The notes beneath the pieces were generated by a model. The model searched no databases. It was not told where the DNA came from and saw nothing but the letters and a program-made list of their open reading frames with translations. A program made the translations under genes and the position numbers. A stretch of DNA of 64,000 bases. Source: an uncultured virus (IMG/VR IMGVR_UViG_3300029448_000020). Taxonomy: Duplodnaviria > Heunggongvirae > Uroviricota > Caudoviricetes > Crassvirales. This document shows, one piece after another, positions 58,202-64,000 of the stretch; position 1 is the stretch's first letter, and the number at the start of each line of letters is the position of its first letter. Location of the stretch: positions 1 through 64,000 of IMG/VR virus record IMGVR_UViG_3300029448_000020; one strand, given 5' to 3'.

Positions 58202-58232
58202 AATATATATACAATTTCATTATAATCTTTTC

Positions 58233-58270
58233 ACAAACTAACTACGACTATCATTAGATAATAATAATGT
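58233..58270 (+). promoter_or_regulatory. early element copy 1
   Basis: ACAAACTAACTACGA-ctatcatt-AGATAATAATAATGT. Confidence 0.75.
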
Positions 58271-58303
58271 AAGTAAAATATAAATAATATAAATATAATA
58301 CTA

Positions 58304-58341
58304 ACAAACTAAATACGAGAATATATAGATAATAATAATAA
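58304..58341 (+). promoter_or_regulatory. early element copy 2
   Basis: ACAAACTAAATACGA-gaatatat-AGATAATAATAATAA. Confidence 0.8.
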
Positions 58342-58357
58342 CTAAAATATAATAACT

Positions 58358-58576
58358 ATGACAACTAAAAGATTTGTAATAAGAAAGTCCTTAATAGGTA
58401 AAGACGTAACAATAACATTTGTTAACAAGAAAGGTGAAACAGTAAAGTATAGTCACGACGATGTGTATAACAAGTTCAAAGAAAGATTCGACTCAATGAA
58501 TTGCTTTGCTAAATATAAATCATATACTAATAGTAATGCTATGCCAGCTTTCTGCCGAGATATGAAGATTCAGTAA
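58358..58576 (+). CDS. early protein, paralog A
   Basis: KRFVIRKSLIGKD..CFAKYKSYT; similar to 59058-59291. Confidence 0.75.
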   Translation: MTTKRFVIRKSLIGKDVTITFVNKKGETVKYSHDDVYNKFKERFDSMNCFAKYKSYTNSNAMPAFCRDMKIQ

Positions 58577-58727
58577 TATCTCGCTACATAATAGTGTGAC
58601 AATTGCTAGTTACTATATCTTTAGTTATAACGCTAATGTCACAGTATAAATAATTAATTTGCGAGTAGAGAAGTGACGAGCAATACGTGTACAAGTAATT
58701 TATTCATTAAACAATTAATATACTTTT

Positions 58728-58765
58728 ACAAACTAAATACGAAACAGTAAAGATAATAATAATGT
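58728..58765 (+). promoter_or_regulatory. early element copy 3
   Basis: ACAAACTAAATACGA-aacagtaa-AGATAATAATAATGT. Confidence 0.8.
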
Positions 58766-58777
58766 AAAACAAATGTA

Positions 58778-58855
58778 ATGGAATTTATAATACTAACAAC
58801 AATTTGGATAATAGTAAAAACTGCTGAGAAATTAGCTAAAATAGAAGAAAGATGA
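58778..58855 (+). CDS. 25-aa hydrophobic peptide
   Basis: MEFIILTTIWIIVKTAEKLAKIEER; ATGA overlap with the next ORF. Confidence 0.45.
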   Translation: MEFIILTTIWIIVKTAEKLAKIEER

Positions 58856-58986
58856 TGAAGTACCTAAGTAAAGATAAAGAACAAAGAATACAACAAATTG
58901 CGCTAATAATACACAATGCAAGAGTGTATGGCGTTGAAGTAAATCAAGAGTTACTTGATGAATACAACAAGTTAACTAAAGAATAA
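58852..58986 (+). CDS. 44-aa early protein
   Basis: MMKYLSKDKEQRIQQIALII...; translated by hand. Confidence 0.5.
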   Translation: MMKYLSKDKEQRIQQIALIIHNARVYGVEVNQELLDEYNKLTKE

Positions 58987-58998
58987 TTGTGAGTCGTC

Positions 58999-59036
58999 AC
59001 AATATAAATACGAACAAGTGTAGATAATATAAATGT
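58999..59036 (+). promoter_or_regulatory. early element copy 4
   Basis: ACAATATAAATACGA-acaagtgt-AGATAATATAAATGT. Confidence 0.8.
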
Positions 59037-59057
59037 AAATAAATAAAATTAATAATT

Positions 59058-59291
59058 ATGACTAATAATGTAATTCAAAGCAAGAGATTTGTGGTAAGAC
59101 AATCACTTGTTGGCAAAGATGCCACTATAAATGTAACATTCAAAAATGGCAAAACTGCGACTTATAATCACGACAAAGTGTTTGCTATCATGAAAGATAA
59201 GTTACAAGAAATGCCATGCTTTATCAAGTACAAGTCGTACACGGCGAGTAATAACCTACCAATGATGGTAAGAGATAAAGATATCGCCTAA
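59058..59291 (+). CDS. early protein, paralog B
   Basis: KRFVVRQSLVGKD..CFIKYKSYT. Confidence 0.75.
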   Translation: MTNNVIQSKRFVVRQSLVGKDATINVTFKNGKTATYNHDKVFAIMKDKLQEMPCFIKYKSYTASNNLPMMVRDKDIA

Positions 59292-59482
59292 TGCGTAGTA
59301 AGAAGTTTAGCCACTTCGAAGTATTTAAAGCAGTAATAACAACTCTTTACATCACAAGTGGCATTCTTATGTTTAGTACACTGATAAGTAATGCGTCACA
59401 AATGTACAAACAAGTAGAAGTAATAGATTCTTATTCAGGAGCAACAATGTATAGTTGCGAGAACTGTGACGAAATAGATTAA
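59291..59482 (+). CDS. small membrane protein
   Basis: TM segment and terminal CENC. Confidence 0.55.
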   Translation: MRSKKFSHFEVFKAVITTLYITSGILMFSTLISNASQMYKQVEVIDSYSGATMYSCENCDEID

Positions 59483-59583
59483 GTTATACAAAACCACTAA
59501 TGAAGTGCTGAGTAACTAGTGGTAACTTGAGACGTAGTTGACTACATTTAGCGTCTTATAAATAATGCGAATGAGTAATACAA

Positions 59584-59649
59584 GGTAGAAAGGCGGCTGT
59601 AGTCCTCTCCGAGTGATGACAATCAAGTGGTTCGAGTCCACAACTACCA
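59584..59649 (+). ncRNA. degenerate tRNA-like element
   Basis: GGTAG/CTACC acceptor-like stem, GTGG-TTCGAGT-CCAC T-arm; no canonical D or anticodon arm. Confidence 0.45.
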
Positions 59650-59651
59650 CT

Positions 59652-59912
59652 ATGAATATAGATAATATAATGAGAAATACGTTCGCTGTCGTGACTAATC
59701 GATGCGGAGTAGAAGATATTCTTGAATTGTATACAGGTGAAGATGCTATGTTTTATGGCAATCCACTCGATATGCAAGTAGAAGATATTGATGAAGTAAT
59801 AAACTACTTCGAAAATACCGAAGAATACGAGAATTGCCAACAGTTACTTGACGTTAAAAATGACAAAGTAGCAGAAGTTTTAACTAAAAAATTGATAAGA
59901 GATGAACTATAA
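59652..59912 (+). CDS. acidic early protein with UVR-like motif
   Basis: INYFENTEEYENCQQL; ATG directly after the tRNA-like element. Confidence 0.6.
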   Translation: MNIDNIMRNTFAVVTNRCGVEDILELYTGEDAMFYGNPLDMQVEDIDEVINYFENTEEYENCQQLLDVKNDKVAEVLTKKLIRDEL

Positions 59913-60002
59913 TATAAAAGATGAAGAATATAATCAAGAACAATTTGATTATTACAACAGTTACTTAGAAGATCAAGTGGATATTAATATAAATATGTAA
60001 GT

Positions 60003-60278
60003 ATGAATAAGAAATTATTATTTATAATAGGTTTTGCGGCAAGTTTAAACGCCGCTTGCCAAACCACCTCAACTAATAAAAAAGCTGATAGTTACCATAA
60101 ATGTATAGTAATGAAGTGTGGTAGTGAGATAGATAAGTGTAAAACAATCGCTGGAATTTTAACACCATTTTGTGATAAGCATATAGAAATGATAAGAAAC
60201 AACAAAGTTTTAGATGTGTGTAGTGGATGTTACAAGCGATATGTAGATAAATGTAAAGAATTAACATATGAGAAATAA
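60003..60278 (+). CDS. Cys-rich putative lipoprotein
   Basis: MNKKLLFIIGFAASLNAAC lipobox-like N-terminus. Confidence 0.55.
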   Translation: MNKKLLFIIGFAASLNAACQTTSTNKKADSYHKCIVMKCGSEIDKCKTIAGILTPFCDKHIEMIRNNKVLDVCSGCYKRYVDKCKELTYEK

Positions 60279-60555
60279 ATTAATAATAGCTAGTGTAGCT
60301 CTTGGTGGACTAGTAAATGCACAGTGTAATTACAAGTGTGGTTACAATCAAGACGAGAATGGTAATACTGTTCACCTTGAGCAATGTAATGAGTATAAAA
60401 AAATTAAAAAAGACAAATCTCTTGATTTAATTTATAATAGAAAAATACCTTTATACACAAAACCTAATGGACCTATAACTCCGTTAGTTAAATCAAAGTG
60501 GATGGAAAAACTAGTAATGACTTTGGAATATGGTGACACCAACATGGTCGAGTAG
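60268..60555 (+). CDS. exported early protein
   Basis: MRNKLIIASVALGGLVNA-Q signal peptide. Confidence 0.55.
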   Translation: MRNKLIIASVALGGLVNAQCNYKCGYNQDENGNTVHLEQCNEYKKIKKDKSLDLIYNRKIPLYTKPNGPITPLVKSKWMEKLVMTLEYGDTNMVE

Positions 60556-60619
60556 CTTAACTGGATAAAGCAACAGCCTTCTAAGCTGTAGAGTGTGAGT
60601 TCGACTCTCACCTCGATCA
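60546..60619 (+). tRNA. tRNA-Arg (anticodon TCT)
   Basis: GGTCGAG/CTCGATC acceptor, GCTT..AAGC D-arm, ACAGC-CT TCT AA-GCTGT anticodon arm, GTGAG-TTCGACT-CTCAC T-arm; CCA not encoded. Confidence 0.9.
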
Positions 60620-60656
60620 CAAATTAAATACGACAACTCGTAGATAATATAAATAT
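60619..60656 (+). promoter_or_regulatory. early element copy 5
   Basis: ACAAATTAAATACGA-caactcgt-AGATAATATAAATAT followed by ATG. Confidence 0.8.
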
Positions 60657-60869
60657 ATGAAATGTAAATGTAAAAAAAATATAATACCAAAAGGACGTTT
60701 GCGACTCGGTTTTAGAGTATGCGTTGAGTGTTCAACTGTCGAAAGATACGGTTGTGCTCCAGTCATTAACCATAAGACAGGCAACACTATTCAAATTATG
60801 TCGCAAGAAGACGCTAAACGCATAGCTAAACTGACTCGTAGACGTGGATATGGTACAATGCTTAAATAA
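60657..60869 (+). CDS. DksA/TraR-type C4 zinc-finger protein
   Basis: CKCKKNIIPKGRLRLGFRVCVEC resembles C..C...IP..RL......C..C. Confidence 0.6.
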   Translation: MKCKCKKNIIPKGRLRLGFRVCVECSTVERYGCAPVINHKTGNTIQIMSQEDAKRIAKLTRRRGYGTMLK

Positions 60870-60876
60870 TAAATAT

Positions 60877-61080
60877 ATGAATAGAATTAAAATACTTAAA
60901 AACGGGAACTTAGTAATGACTAAGTCAGATGTAGAAATAACTTATAGACCATACAAGGTTGGTGATTTACCAAAAGACTTTGGCTGTATAGAATATAAAA
61001 GACCAAGTGGCAAGCTAAGAGATGGTATTGACAACTGGTTCAAGTACAAAGGTTTAACTTACGTAGCTATTACAAAATAA
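60877..61080 (+). CDS. hypothetical early protein (likely start MNRIK)
   Basis: Stop codon lies inside element copy 6. Confidence 0.6.
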   Translation: MNRIKILKNGNLVMTKSDVEITYRPYKVGDLPKDFGCIEYKRPSGKLRDGIDNWFKYKGLTYVAITK

Positions 61081-61109
61081 ATACGACAAGTAACAGATAA
61101 TAATAATAT
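61072..61109 (+). promoter_or_regulatory. early element copy 6
   Basis: ACAAAATAAATACGA-caagtaac-AGATAATAATAATAT(G). Confidence 0.8.
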
Positions 61110-61227
61110 GAAAATACAACGAAAAGACATACAAACAAGAGATCCTTACTGGAAAGTAGCGTCATTCAAGCGTATTCATAAGAGTAAAAAGACTTATACT
61201 CGTAAAAATAAGCATAAAAATAAATAA
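61108..61227 (+). CDS. 39-aa basic peptide, ArfA-like C-terminus
   Basis: MKIQRKDIQTRDPYWKVASFKRIHKSKKTYTRKNKHKNK; translated by hand. Confidence 0.55.
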   Translation: MKIQRKDIQTRDPYWKVASFKRIHKSKKTYTRKNKHKNK

Positions 61228-61230
61228 TAT

Positions 61231-61815
61231 ATGACAAAAGTAAAAACAATGGAAGAAGCATACCGAGTATTTGAACTACTTGGTATTAAAGATGTCACGA
61301 AAAAGTGGCAAAAGAAACAAGGTACTGAAGTATTTGAGTTGCCATTTAAAACTATGTGCTACAACGGTCAAGCAGAAACTAATAGATTCTCGATCTACAA
61401 AAGTGGTTATATACGTAAAATGGTAGTTCATCCAACTAGTAATGCAAGTTATAGTTGCTATCAACTAAATAAAACTCGCAAATCTGATGAGTATTTCAAA
61501 GATTATGACTACGATGGCAAGTGGACAGGTAAATATCGTAAAAGCAACAGAACAGAGCGAATTATGATAGATACTCACAGAGATCGAGTAGTATATTTAT
61601 GTAATTACATACTAAAAAATTACTATAATAGTAATAAAATGAACTTAGTTGGCGAATATACTATGAAAAGAGTAGCAGAAGTACATGGCGAATGGTGGAG
61701 AAACGAAAGAAAACACGACGAGTGGCCATTTGAAGATGTAAAAAGAAACGATGTAGACTACGAACCTAAAGAAGTTCAAATAATAATTGACGGACACCGT
61801 TATAAAGTAATATAA
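61231..61815 (+). CDS. hypothetical early protein
   Basis: 194-aa ORF with AT-rich start. Confidence 0.65.
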   Translation: MTKVKTMEEAYRVFELLGIKDVTKKWQKKQGTEVFELPFKTMCYNGQAETNRFSIYKSGYIRKMVVHPTSNASYSCYQLNKTRKSDEYFKDYDYDGKWTGKYRKSNRTERIMIDTHRDRVVYLCNYILKNYYNSNKMNLVGEYTMKRVAEVHGEWWRNERKHDEWPFEDVKRNDVDYEPKEVQIIIDGHRYKVI

Positions 61816-61816
61816 A

Positions 61817-62068
61817 ATGATAGAAGAATTAAAAGATTTAGAACAAGAAGCGATGGATGAGTTAACGCCTGAAGACTATATGGCAATCACCTCTAATGTA
61901 ATGGACGACTATGATCGACCAATATACCAAAGTGGCTACATAGATGGCTTACAAACAGCTATAAGAATGCTTAGTAGTGATGATACTACCATGAGTTATA
62001 CAATGGAGATTGATGAGATGTTTGGTGAGGACTATGCTAAAGTAGATGAAGACGAAGACACAAAATAA
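61817..62068 (+). CDS. acidic hypothetical protein
   Basis: YQSGYIDGL motif; stop inside element copy 7. Confidence 0.6.
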   Translation: MIEELKDLEQEAMDELTPEDYMAITSNVMDDYDRPIYQSGYIDGLQTAIRMLSSDDTTMSYTMEIDEMFGEDYAKVDEDEDTK

Positions 62069-62097
62069 ATACGATTGCTTCAAGATAATAATAATAT
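62060..62097 (+). promoter_or_regulatory. early element copy 7
   Basis: ACAAAATAAATACGA-ttgcttca-AGATAATAATAATAT. Confidence 0.8.
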
Positions 62098-62111
62098 AAA
62101 AAATAAATAAT

Positions 62112-62312
62112 ATGCCAAATATGAGTTACTGTAGGTTTGAAAACACTACAATAGATATAGATGATTGCTTAGCTGCGATACAAGATTCTCACGAAGAATG
62201 TGCTGATTTAAGTAGACGTGAGGTGCAAGCTTTACAAAGATTACTAGAACAAGCAGAAGAAATAGTAGATTTATCGCATGATATTGAACAAATAATAGAA
62301 AAATATAACTAA
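62112..62312 (+). CDS. small phage protein MPNMSYCRFENT
   Basis: Helical ORF after element copy 7. Confidence 0.65.
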   Translation: MPNMSYCRFENTTIDIDDCLAAIQDSHEECADLSRREVQALQRLLEQAEEIVDLSHDIEQIIEKYN

Positions 62313-62326
62313 AAATAACTCAAAAA

Positions 62327-62731
62327 TGCGGGGCGAGGGACGTGTAGAACTTAAAGATGGGGTTAATCCGTTTGGACACCTCGGTTCATCTAACCTTCTT
62401 GCCGCAGTGACCTGACTATATCTATGTATAAAGATGAGGTTGGTCACACGTGAACTAGGTGGTTCAATGTAGGATAAAGCATTCAAGGGAGTGGGAGCGA
62501 AATCTCCAGTTAACTATAAACTACTCGGTCTTGATGGTACCACACCTACAGTTCACAACAGCTTGAAATGGACAAAACAGGGTGATACGCACCGCGTAAT
62601 TTGCCTGACGAGGTGGGAGGTTCGATTCCTCCCCAAGCTGCAAGATATGTGCCTAAATGTGAAATTCATAGCAAGGTCGCAAGTACCTGCAGAAGGCTTG
62701 TATGGATAGAGTTAAAGCCTCTATACATATC
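62327..62731 (+). ncRNA. structured non-coding RNA cluster of five abutting domains, one tRNA-like
   Basis: Closing stems TGCGG/CCGCA, GTGACC/GGTCAC, GTGAACT/AGTTCAC, CAGCTTG/CAAGCTG, GATATGT/ACATATC; GC content visibly higher than the flanks. Confidence 0.65.
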
Positions 62732-62769
62732 ACAAACTAAATACGAATAAAGTAAGATAATAAATACAT
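62732..62769 (+). promoter_or_regulatory. early element copy 8
   Basis: ACAAACTAAATACGA-ataaagta-AGATAATAAATACAT(G). Confidence 0.8.
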
Positions 62770-63001
62770 GAAAACAATATACGATAGACTCACACCAGAT
62801 ATTCTGGCGAGTATAAACAATGACGAACAAAGATATCCTTTTACAACTAAAGCTCTTAAAATAAAGCTTAAGTCTAGTGATGACTGGTCACAGTTATCTG
62901 TAGGTGATGTTCAATCAATAATAACACATTCTCATATAAGATTAATTGACGTAGATCAAGCAGATTTAATGTGGGGTGATAAATTTTTAATAAGTAAGTA
63001 A
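62768..63001 (+). CDS. hypothetical early protein
   Basis: ATG 6 nt after GATAAT of copy 8. Confidence 0.6.
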   Translation: MKTIYDRLTPDILASINNDEQRYPFTTKALKIKLKSSDDWSQLSVGDVQSIITHSHIRLIDVDQADLMWGDKFLISK

Positions 63002-63065
63002 TGATAATACCAAAAATACTAATATGCTATATAATTATTTTTATAATAGCTGTAAAATATAAAAA

Positions 63066-63278
63066 ATGAGTAAAAAATTAAAAGATGGAGTCTACAAGGC
63101 TCAAAATGGAAGTGATAAAATTATGTACTTTGTACACGATGAGTTAATTGTTATGCAGTGGAAACACGGAACATTCAAAACTAATACTAACTTTATGTTA
63201 GGTGCTAAATGGGTTGAATCATTACCAATGTCAAAAGGTGAATTTATAAAAGGTTATAATCAATTAAAATCGTGGTAA
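63066..63278 (+). CDS. hypothetical early protein
   Basis: Operon fit. Confidence 0.55.
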   Translation: MSKKLKDGVYKAQNGSDKIMYFVHDELIVMQWKHGTFKTNTNFMLGAKWVESLPMSKGEFIKGYNQLKSW

Positions 63279-63279
63279 A

Positions 63280-63696
63280 ATGGCAACAAGAGCAAAAATA
63301 CATATAGCTAGGCGTGAAGAAGGAGTATCGTTTAGTGACATACCGGAGAAAGTTATGGTAAGTATTTATAATCATTGGGATGGTTACCCTGAAGGATTAG
63401 GTGTGAAATTAGCCTCTTATCTTGATGATTTTGTAATAACAAATGGCTTAAGTAGAGACAATGAGTATGTCTTCAATGGATTAGGCTGCATGGCGGCTTC
63501 AATTATAGAACATTTAAAAGATGGTCCAGGAAACGTGTATATAGAAGATCCAGAACGTCCTCACACTTGGATAGATTATGATTATTACGTATGGGGTGAT
63601 GACCATAAAGATATATGGATTAGTATATTTGATGGATCTGAGTGTATATTTGTAGGAAAACCAAAAGCTTTATTAAGTAAATACTACACAAACTAA
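63280..63696 (+). CDS. phage protein with Y.HWDGYP motif
   Basis: MATRA..SIYNHWDGYPEGLG..IDYDYY; stop inside element copy 9. Confidence 0.7.
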   Translation: MATRAKIHIARREEGVSFSDIPEKVMVSIYNHWDGYPEGLGVKLASYLDDFVITNGLSRDNEYVFNGLGCMAASIIEHLKDGPGNVYIEDPERPHTWIDYDYYVWGDDHKDIWISIFDGSECIFVGKPKALLSKYYTN

Positions 63697-63725
63697 ATAC
63701 GACGACCTATGGATAATATAAAAGA
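63688..63725 (+). promoter_or_regulatory. early element copy 9
   Basis: ACAAACTAAATACGA-cgacctat-GGATAATATAAAAGA. Confidence 0.75.
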
Positions 63726-63875
63726 TGAAAATTTAAAACGATTAGGCAGATTTATAGCTGAAGGATTAATGGATTTAGCAAAATACACAGACAAAGAAAA
63801 CTGGATGGAAGAGAATATGAGAGACCATATGATCGGTGAGTTAGCACGCTGTGTCACATTGCAAAATTTATATCT
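63709..63875 (+). CDS. hypothetical early protein, cut by an assembly gap
   Basis: ORF runs into the N-run at 63876; start uncertain. Confidence 0.45.
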
Positions 63876-64000
63876 NNNNNNNNNNAGTTTGAGAAATGTG
63901 CTATAATGAAAATAAGAATAATGGAATTAACAGATAAATTAGATTTAGAAATTGATTCCGATTTAACAAATTTAGATAAAGATGATGAGGAATAAACCAA

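Follow-up and report, generated by a model that had tools for sequence, protein, structure and literature searches.

What a 405-nt run of back-to-back hairpin domains (62327-62731) contributes to the early region of an uncultured phage is the question raised by this locus. The window, by which we mean the whole 64,000-nt stretch of DNA analysed, comprises bases 1-64000 of a source record of 67,197 bases. It is that of a marine podophage, with genes for a portal, a large terminase, a primase/helicase, thymidylate synthase and GroEL, and the public runs that match it best are, where labelled, mostly marine. Near the genome ends lie genes for a PDDEXK-like DUF3799 protein, an ERF protein, a sigma-70-type factor and a ligase. 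In its terminase the phage shares 63% identity with an uncultured podovirus, 44% with the Flavobacterium elemo phages and 38% with Cellulophaga phages; since the closest cultured terminases are those of flavobacterial phages, a flavobacterial host is suggested. The array sits in a block of small genes with nine copies of a repeat (58232-63737), each of which precedes an ORF. The copy at 62059-62092 (+ strand; CACAAA-N-TAAATACGA, 8 nt, GATAAT) stands ahead of a 66-aa early ORF of unknown function (phrog_8760; 62112-62312, +) directly upstream of the array, and is probably the promoter of a transcript running into it; in many relatives the place of this ORF is taken by other genes. The next copy (62731-62764, +) touches the 3' end of the array, and such a copy also ends the array in most relatives. 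No terminator-like site was found on the + strand of 60400-64000, and a sigma-70 scan returned 16 sites against 17.8 expected. The gene for the sigma-70-type factor (L279:2446-3204) is carried by the same genome as the nine rigid, promoter-like repeats. Further downstream, a run of 10 N (63877-63886), an assembly gap, falls within a small ORF.

An earlier, sequence-only reading had described five RNA domains tiling this gap, and the five terminal stems indeed lie where it placed them within 62327-62731, separated by 0, 2, 2 and 3 nt. All five domains are closed in the minimum-energy fold of 62320-62740 (-126 kcal/mol, z -2.4, matched by 1 of 100 shuffles), and the array (-124.7) is more stable than any of 158 tiled 405-nt + strand stretches, the best of which reaches -118.8. 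It is also richer in G+C, as had been claimed of it relative to its flanks (45.9%, against 33.1% for the window). Folded singly, domains 1 to 5 outdo their shuffles by modest margins only (z -1.1, -4.3, -1.7, -2.3 and -1.8), and therefore the decisive support for them is comparative; for each of the five the + RNA folds better than the - RNA. The claim that the stretch holds no convincing ORF was borne out, for the short overlapping frames (72 aa from a GTG on the + strand, 71 aa on the - strand) are not genes, because the domain-4 arm varies in length across every reading frame in relatives. The domains had been called unfamiliar, and no Rfam 15 family reaches its gathering threshold in the array. 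Over the whole window only a tRNA-Arg at 60546 scores above threshold, and at E<=10 the stretch 62200-62850 gives only a beta_tmRNA match to the T arm (12.8 bits) and a reverse-strand Plastid-ycf2 match. That gene, a tRNA-Arg(TCT) at 60546-60620 with no encoded CCA, overlaps the end of a 95-aa ORF and runs into a repeat copy. Related loci gave true tRNAs only (10 loci) and nothing over threshold (4 loci, at E<=5). Searched by blastn, the array region has one T-arm match among GenBank phages (E 0.5) and none among plasmids, and a related array has T-arm matches only. The literature searched holds no description of the array; subscription papers and supplementary motif tables may hold some of its modules.

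Relatives were reached by several routes. Through the 77-aa ORF downstream we found a contig in which modules 2, 3 and 4 follow one another as in the window and 1 and 5 are replaced by other modules, while a module-4 pattern gave 6 matches in viral contigs and 106 in metagenomes; domain 4 is genuinely present in 104 of the latter, and the two chance matches (L174 and L220) were dropped. An exact 15-mer of module 3 produced 51 matches, 6 of them real, and 1 new contig; one of module 5 produced 22 in viral contigs, all by chance. The 110 sequences examined contain 41 distinct complete arrays, all selected for module 4, and the loci are non-independent samples from which only identical arrays and one duplicate contig (L108) were taken out. 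In GTDB genomes the module-4 pattern had a single chance match, so that the exact pattern finds no host or prophage copy. An annotated tRNA-Ala of Flavobacterium phage elemoA_7-9A (L278:10495-10570, - strand), which looks irregular, its acceptor being without alanine identity, is a distinct, D-arm-bearing unit rather than module 4.

The module common to these arrays is module 4 (62559-62641, +), which had been called tRNA-like over 62559-62640 and which proves to be an anticodon-less, D-stem-less mimic of the tRNA top half with covarying stems. Its acceptor stem (62559-62565/62634-62640) is followed by an invariant D-loop GG (62570-62571), a hypervariable arm in place of the anticodon arm (62572-62602), a 4-bp arm capped by GACG (62603-62614), a 6-bp T arm (62615-62633, loop 62621-62627) and an invariant C (62641); the helix admits two readings, 7+6 pairs with C73 or 6+6 and an extra pair with C74. 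Among 25 diverse, hand-picked sequences, 98.3% of 420 cells pair and 13 of 17 pairs show two-sided change, with figures that ignore relatedness and with a search pattern that fixed part of the sequence in close members. The covariation score is reached by 0 of 500 shuffles, slid controls drop to 38-49% paired, and the one-sided changes are G.U on the + strand. The arm, by contrast with this scaffold, comprises 63 distinct sequences in 38 clusters (10-93 nt, 102 of 109 loci), most of which are irregular hairpins (z has a median of -1.6 and lies below -1.5 in 19 of 35) that share no loop and have loops of any size; relaxed constraint would account for such arms as well as an arms race would. ARAGORN does not call module 4 by default and does so at a relaxed threshold only. 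The acceptor stem and the T arm, with an invariant consensus T-loop, are canonical, yet a canonical tRNA is rejected by the lack of a D stem and of a 5-bp anticodon stem with a 7-nt loop. A stemless D loop with GG, a T arm and the want of both anticodon and tag frame recall TLD-only tmRNAs. Alanine identity consists of G1-C72, G2-C71, G3.U70 and A73. Module 4 has C-G, A-U and G-C pairs and then C, with neither G3.U70 nor A73, so the alanine type was rejected, and no aminoacylation identity is recognisable in it. Mycobacteriophage DS6A carries the one published phage case of a tag-less tmRNA, which reportedly inhibits host tmRNA (PMC4131195, PMC11915505). Module 4 shares with this RNA the acceptor stem, the T arm, the stemless D loop and the missing anticodon; it differs from it in lacking G3.U70 and A73, in its 6-bp T stem, in the extra GACG-capped arm and in its place within a shuffled multi-module array. 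More distant phages, found via the 66-aa ORF, possess tag-less tmRNA-like sister units; these comprise 37 distinct sequences from 38 of 80 loci, 34 of the sequences having both G3.U70 and A73, and at several loci such a unit shares an array with one of module-4 type. These units of marine phages, 70-126 nt long and likewise bearing a hypervariable arm, include three variants without the alanine set; examples are L026:3709-3817, L037:2845-2924, L044:3763-3832 and L056:3828-3903 (34 more loci).

Directly upstream, module 3 (62450-62556, +; GTGAACT/AGTTCAC) holds a predicted pseudoknot inside its terminal stem, with P1 at 62450-62455/62551-62556, S1 at 62459-62463/62539-62543, S2 at 62468-62473/62545-62550, a conserved ATAAAG linker (62474-62479) and a variable branched domain at about 62482-62535. 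Relatives may add a hairpin between S1 and S2, and insertions occur at two fixed points. From 36 rows, after removal of 11 unrelated chance rows and 2 mis-anchored duplicates, 23 cores remained. S2 is fully paired in 22 of the 23 and has two groups of two-sided variants (L269/L274 and L186/L189/L223), whereas the predicted nested fold holds in only 13, so that the pseudoknot is preferred; S1 barely varies and draws its support from conservation. A twister reading was discarded on the ground that the would-be core positions vary. A compact version without the branched domain occurs in L186, L189, L223, L228 and L274, a long version also stands downstream of the tRNA mimic in L269, L273 and L274, and another pseudoknot-like module, with a terminal stem closing it, is found upstream or downstream of the core in L166, L231, L107 (twice) and L178.

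The remaining modules are of unequal character. Module 1 (62327-62406, +; ends TGCGG..CCGCA) has a bulged two-part base stem, a conserved internal loop and an exchangeable tip; over 17 distinct sequences 94.7% of cells are paired, with two-sided change in 3 of 10 pairs (only 5 cells), and in RNAalifold 6 of 14 pairs change on both sides. The AGATG/CATCT pairing proposed for its interior is not the conserved one, AGATG lying within the swappable tip. Near its 5' end, the six-letter motif GNCGAAN0-1G is present in 13 of the 17 sequences, the window copy being off by one base; the module encloses only a variable hairpin and no permuted tRNA-like domain, and the 67-kb record has no tmRNA gene and no TROVE gene (PF05731). 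Module 2 (62407-62447, +; GTGACC/GGTCAC) is a 41-nt bulged hairpin, nearly invariant even in its loops, with the z of -4.3 given above; of its 26 loci, 15 equal the window, one has a two-sided stem change, three have G.U-compatible variants and one has a broken end pair. Module 5 (62644-62731, +) is a closed multi-branch domain in a variable downstream slot. Its closure by GATATGT/ACATATC stands, whereas the AGGCTT/AAGCCT arm also ascribed to it is absent from the minimum-energy fold and the known copies are identical. Those copies (L169, L180 and L234, of which L180 begins inside module 4) match module 5 exactly; downstream of it, L180 and L234 share only 69-80% identity with the window, and for a module to stay identical amid flanking genes that differ by 20-30% there must have been either selection or a recent transfer. 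Modules 3 and 5 were also weighed as ribozymes, and the idea was given up: hammerhead, twister, twister-sister, pistol, hatchet and HDV gave no Rfam hit to window modules at E<=10, and comparison of module 5 by hand with the ribozyme consensus sequences found no complete core. Covariation, which had been proposed as a check, holds for domains 1, 3 and 4.

Set side by side, the 41 complete arrays present 36 orders of module labels (about 35 once a false label at the module-1 start is removed), and they contain up to about eight modules. Module 3 lies directly 5' of module 4 in 38 of them; module 2 occurs in 16, module 1 in 12 and module 5 in 2. A compact pseudoknot replaces module 3 in six further loci, and in L178 and L232 no pseudoknot precedes module 4. 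The slot 3' of module 4 may be empty; otherwise it is taken by a small ORF, a further hairpin domain, a tRNA-like gene or a second tRNA mimic. In L208, 229 upstream bases are 100% identical to the window, while there are differences in the tip of module 2, in the two inserts of module 3 and in the downstream slot. Ten stretches of at least 16 letters are shared between scaffold classes, comprising two pattern errors, four between tRNA-mimic variants and four between unlike scaffolds: the module-1 tip of the window is part of the module-4 arm in L254, the module-2 tip (inner hairpin) is inside a ribozyme-like module in L199 and L213, one hairpin is common to modules 1 and 3, and another to modules 2, 3 and 4. 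As judged from compared sequences, then, the scaffolds are constant, and arm tips and module sets are exchanged between phages. This combinatorial shuffling was missed by the sequence-only reading, as were the pseudoknot of domain 3 and the nature of domain 4 as an anticodon-less mimic with a hypervariable arm; its two suggestions, a new phage ncRNA or a polycistronic small-RNA precursor, both fit a locus with no Rfam family, with covarying modules 1, 3 and 4, and with neighbours that change exactly at module borders. A small hairpin module with an extended -10-like TG-N-TATAAT appears in L162, L190, L194, L206, L213 and L238 (module g). An unrelated phage group (L061, L068 and L070) has about six dispersed T-arm-like hairpins per 8 kb, which ARAGORN does not call as tRNAs.

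A ribozyme-like module, absent from the window, is found in 15 of the 41 complete arrays. The HDV-like topology is a nested double pseudoknot with a G1.U pair, P1.1 and a C opening J4/2. Fitted by hand, this double pseudoknot is accommodated by 40 locus hits (some of them duplicates, two mis-parsed), and 10 of the 40 show P3 and P1.1 changing on both sides; P4 is variable and there is no Rfam hit. The C at the catalytic position, which PMC10879173 gives for HDV-like ribozymes, was fixed by the search pattern. Examples of the candidate are the region L103:3545-3640, L105, L107, L159 and L269. RNA libraries touch the locus as well. Across four RNA runs, taken from six, contigs of three studies lie on 62331-62572 (modules 1-3), which records presence in the libraries, to which DNA may contribute. 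One RNA-library contig of 301 bases at depth 855 spans modules 1 and 2, and loose contig ends fall at module borders or insert points and continue into other known modules. No contig of the four runs covers the 3' half of module 4 or module 5, in data that speak to presence rather than absence, and RNA run X20 has contigs on the downstream ORF only.

Comparison of the relatives establishes the array as a conserved, structured, modular noncoding RNA of the + strand, with a predicted core of pseudoknot and tRNA mimic and with exchangeable content. Very probably it folds as a string of closed domains and forms the noncoding tail of an early + strand transcript, to judge by the covariation of modules 1, 3 and 4. 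An early transcript would begin at the upstream repeat and carry the array as its stable tail; host RNase P and 3'-trimming enzymes would probably cut on either side of module 4, because it keeps the tRNA elbow and top half. The cuts would free an anticodon-less tRNA mimic and leave an upstream RNA ending in the module-3 pseudoknot, which may shield it from 3' exonucleases, and in about a third of relatives the HDV-like candidate may also sever the array from the mRNA. The ERF/PDDEXK recombination genes, acting on short conserved ends, would probably exchange tips and modules. Somewhat short of even odds, the stable products might display their changing hairpins as decoys or sponges for host RNA-binding proteins, possible targets being tRNA/tmRNA-handling enzymes and RNA-sensing defences. 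To the whole of this reading, a processed, protected and reshuffled decoy array, we would assign a probability of roughly 0.45. In its favour we count the covariation, the + strand bias, the invariant D-loop GG and T-loop, the fixed order of module 3 then 4, the swapped tips, the L208 comparison and the ERF and DUF3799 genes, and also the tag-less tmRNA-like sister units, the inhibition by DS6A, the ribozyme-like module and the RNA-library contigs. Against it, only 0-3 nt lie between modules, and therefore most of them may never be separated; module 4 has no recognisable aminoacylation identity and so points to no particular decoyed partner; L178 and L232 lack a pseudoknot before module 4; and a search with the module-4 model was negative for MW202828 and for bases 1-30000 of elemoA_7-9A, the one cultured relative, searched over part of its length, yielding no copy.

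Several of these features could also be explained by action in cis only, with module 4 as a cut signal, closed domains that guard the early mRNA upstream at its 3' end, and inert released pieces. The fixed order of pseudoknot and tRNA mimic suits this idea, and so do the position of the array directly behind an ORF, the lack of a terminator-like + strand site in 60400-64000 and the freedom of the module-4 arm to change; yet one pseudoknot would suffice where arrays reach about eight modules, module 2 is nearly invariant with its loops included, and in 15 of 41 arrays the 5'-cutting candidate ribozyme would detach the mRNA from the core meant to protect it. We regard this explanation as unlikely. 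Alternatively, the tRNA mimic might be the functional product, CCA-tailed and perhaps aminoacylated by a synthetase indifferent to the anticodon, titrating EF-Tu, SmpB, a synthetase or a CCA-end toxin, with the other modules as accessories. Module 4 is the most conserved unit, and its extra 4-bp arm resembles the variable arm of class II tRNAs; the sister units with the alanine set (34 of 37) are moreover like the inhibitory DS6A RNA (PMC4131195, PMC11915505). An acceptor that differs freely (5 of 7 pairs change on both sides) is nevertheless a misfit with one synthetase identity, module 4 lacks G3.U70 and A73, and the shuffled modules would be left unexplained, which makes this alternative quite unlikely. 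Selfish or neutral hairpin cassettes acting as DNA, attC-like or REP-like, might instead have accumulated in a tolerant spot: the ends are precise and self-complementary, whole units are gained and lost, the same hairpins are nested by insertion, and modules 3 and 4, as DNA, can fold whichever strand is taken (z -2 to -3). The T-loop, the D-loop GG, the pseudoknot and the HDV-like fold are, however, RNA features, the G.U changes favour one strand, module 1 as DNA is no better than shuffles (z 0.3 and -0.2), and no integrase appeared among 52 proteins scanned, a subset of the ORFs, so that such an origin is improbable. That the stems arose by chance in a spacer richer in G+C, or in a gene for a small protein, an idea that the modest single-domain z of four domains and the short overlapping ORFs might encourage, is next to impossible given conservation and covariation across more than 100 loci and arm lengths varying in all frames, evidence that refutes it for modules 1-4 and, for module 5, consists of conservation.

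The array has partial parallels among known systems. Phages T4 and T5 make multimeric tRNA precursors with co-transcribed stable RNAs, which are cut by host tRNA enzymes. The array would likewise be a polycistronic phage RNA giving rise, as predicted, to stable small RNAs of unknown function; in contrast to those precursors it contains no true tRNA, and its units and tips are exchanged combinatorially. In the MALAT1 3' element with mascRNA and in plant mitochondrial t-elements, a protective fold lies directly 5' of a tRNA-like cut signal. The array has the same layout of fold and cut signal, whereas those elements are eukaryotic, unrelated in sequence and not shuffled, and the likeness is one of analogy only. 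Among theta ribozymes of Bacteroidota phages, cleavage at the ribozyme's 5' end forms tRNA 3' ends, according to PMC10879173. The relatives' candidate resembles these and other minimal HDV-like ribozymes in its putative fold, which would cut at its 5' end, and probably in host phylum; unlike the theta ribozymes, it comes after modules that are not tRNAs, its P4 varies, and the window lacks it. The bacterial Y RNA YrlA combines the Rsr-binding motif GNCGAAN0-1G with tRNA mimicry (PMC4201824), and the array has tRNA mimicry and, in the bulged stem of most module-1 copies, the same motif. In the array, by contrast with YrlA, the stem and the tRNA-like part belong to different modules, the latter shows no permutation, and there is neither a TROVE gene nor an Rfam hit. 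The resemblance of module 1 to YrlA is a lead only, because the window copy misses the motif and the genome has no TROVE gene.

By its kind the locus belongs with phage tRNA-like RNAs in polycistronic precursors, and the combinatorial array stands a real chance of being a system of a new kind. It has yielded at least four new RNA families that are conserved or supported by covariation, a new HDV-like ribozyme candidate, and a large set of natural anticodon-less tRNA mimics, some having alanine identity and others lacking it, and the modules are short enough for in vitro work, which makes the role of non-tRNA RNAs in phage tRNA-like clusters testable. In these phages, about 250-950 bases of the early region would be structured RNA, with scaffolds kept and content reshuffled even between near-identical phages. 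Tentatively, and with more doubt than confidence, one may picture here a combinatorial RNA display locus of marine flavobacterial podophages, in which self-processing scaffolds (pseudoknot, tRNA mimic, ribozyme and Y-stem mimic) and a recombination-swapped pool of hairpins would make up a diversifying library of decoys against host RNA-binding and defence proteins. If true, it would be the RNA counterpart of hypervariable anti-defence gene islands, and phage counter-defence, which has been studied almost entirely as proteins, would in a widespread group of marine phages make use of structured RNA.
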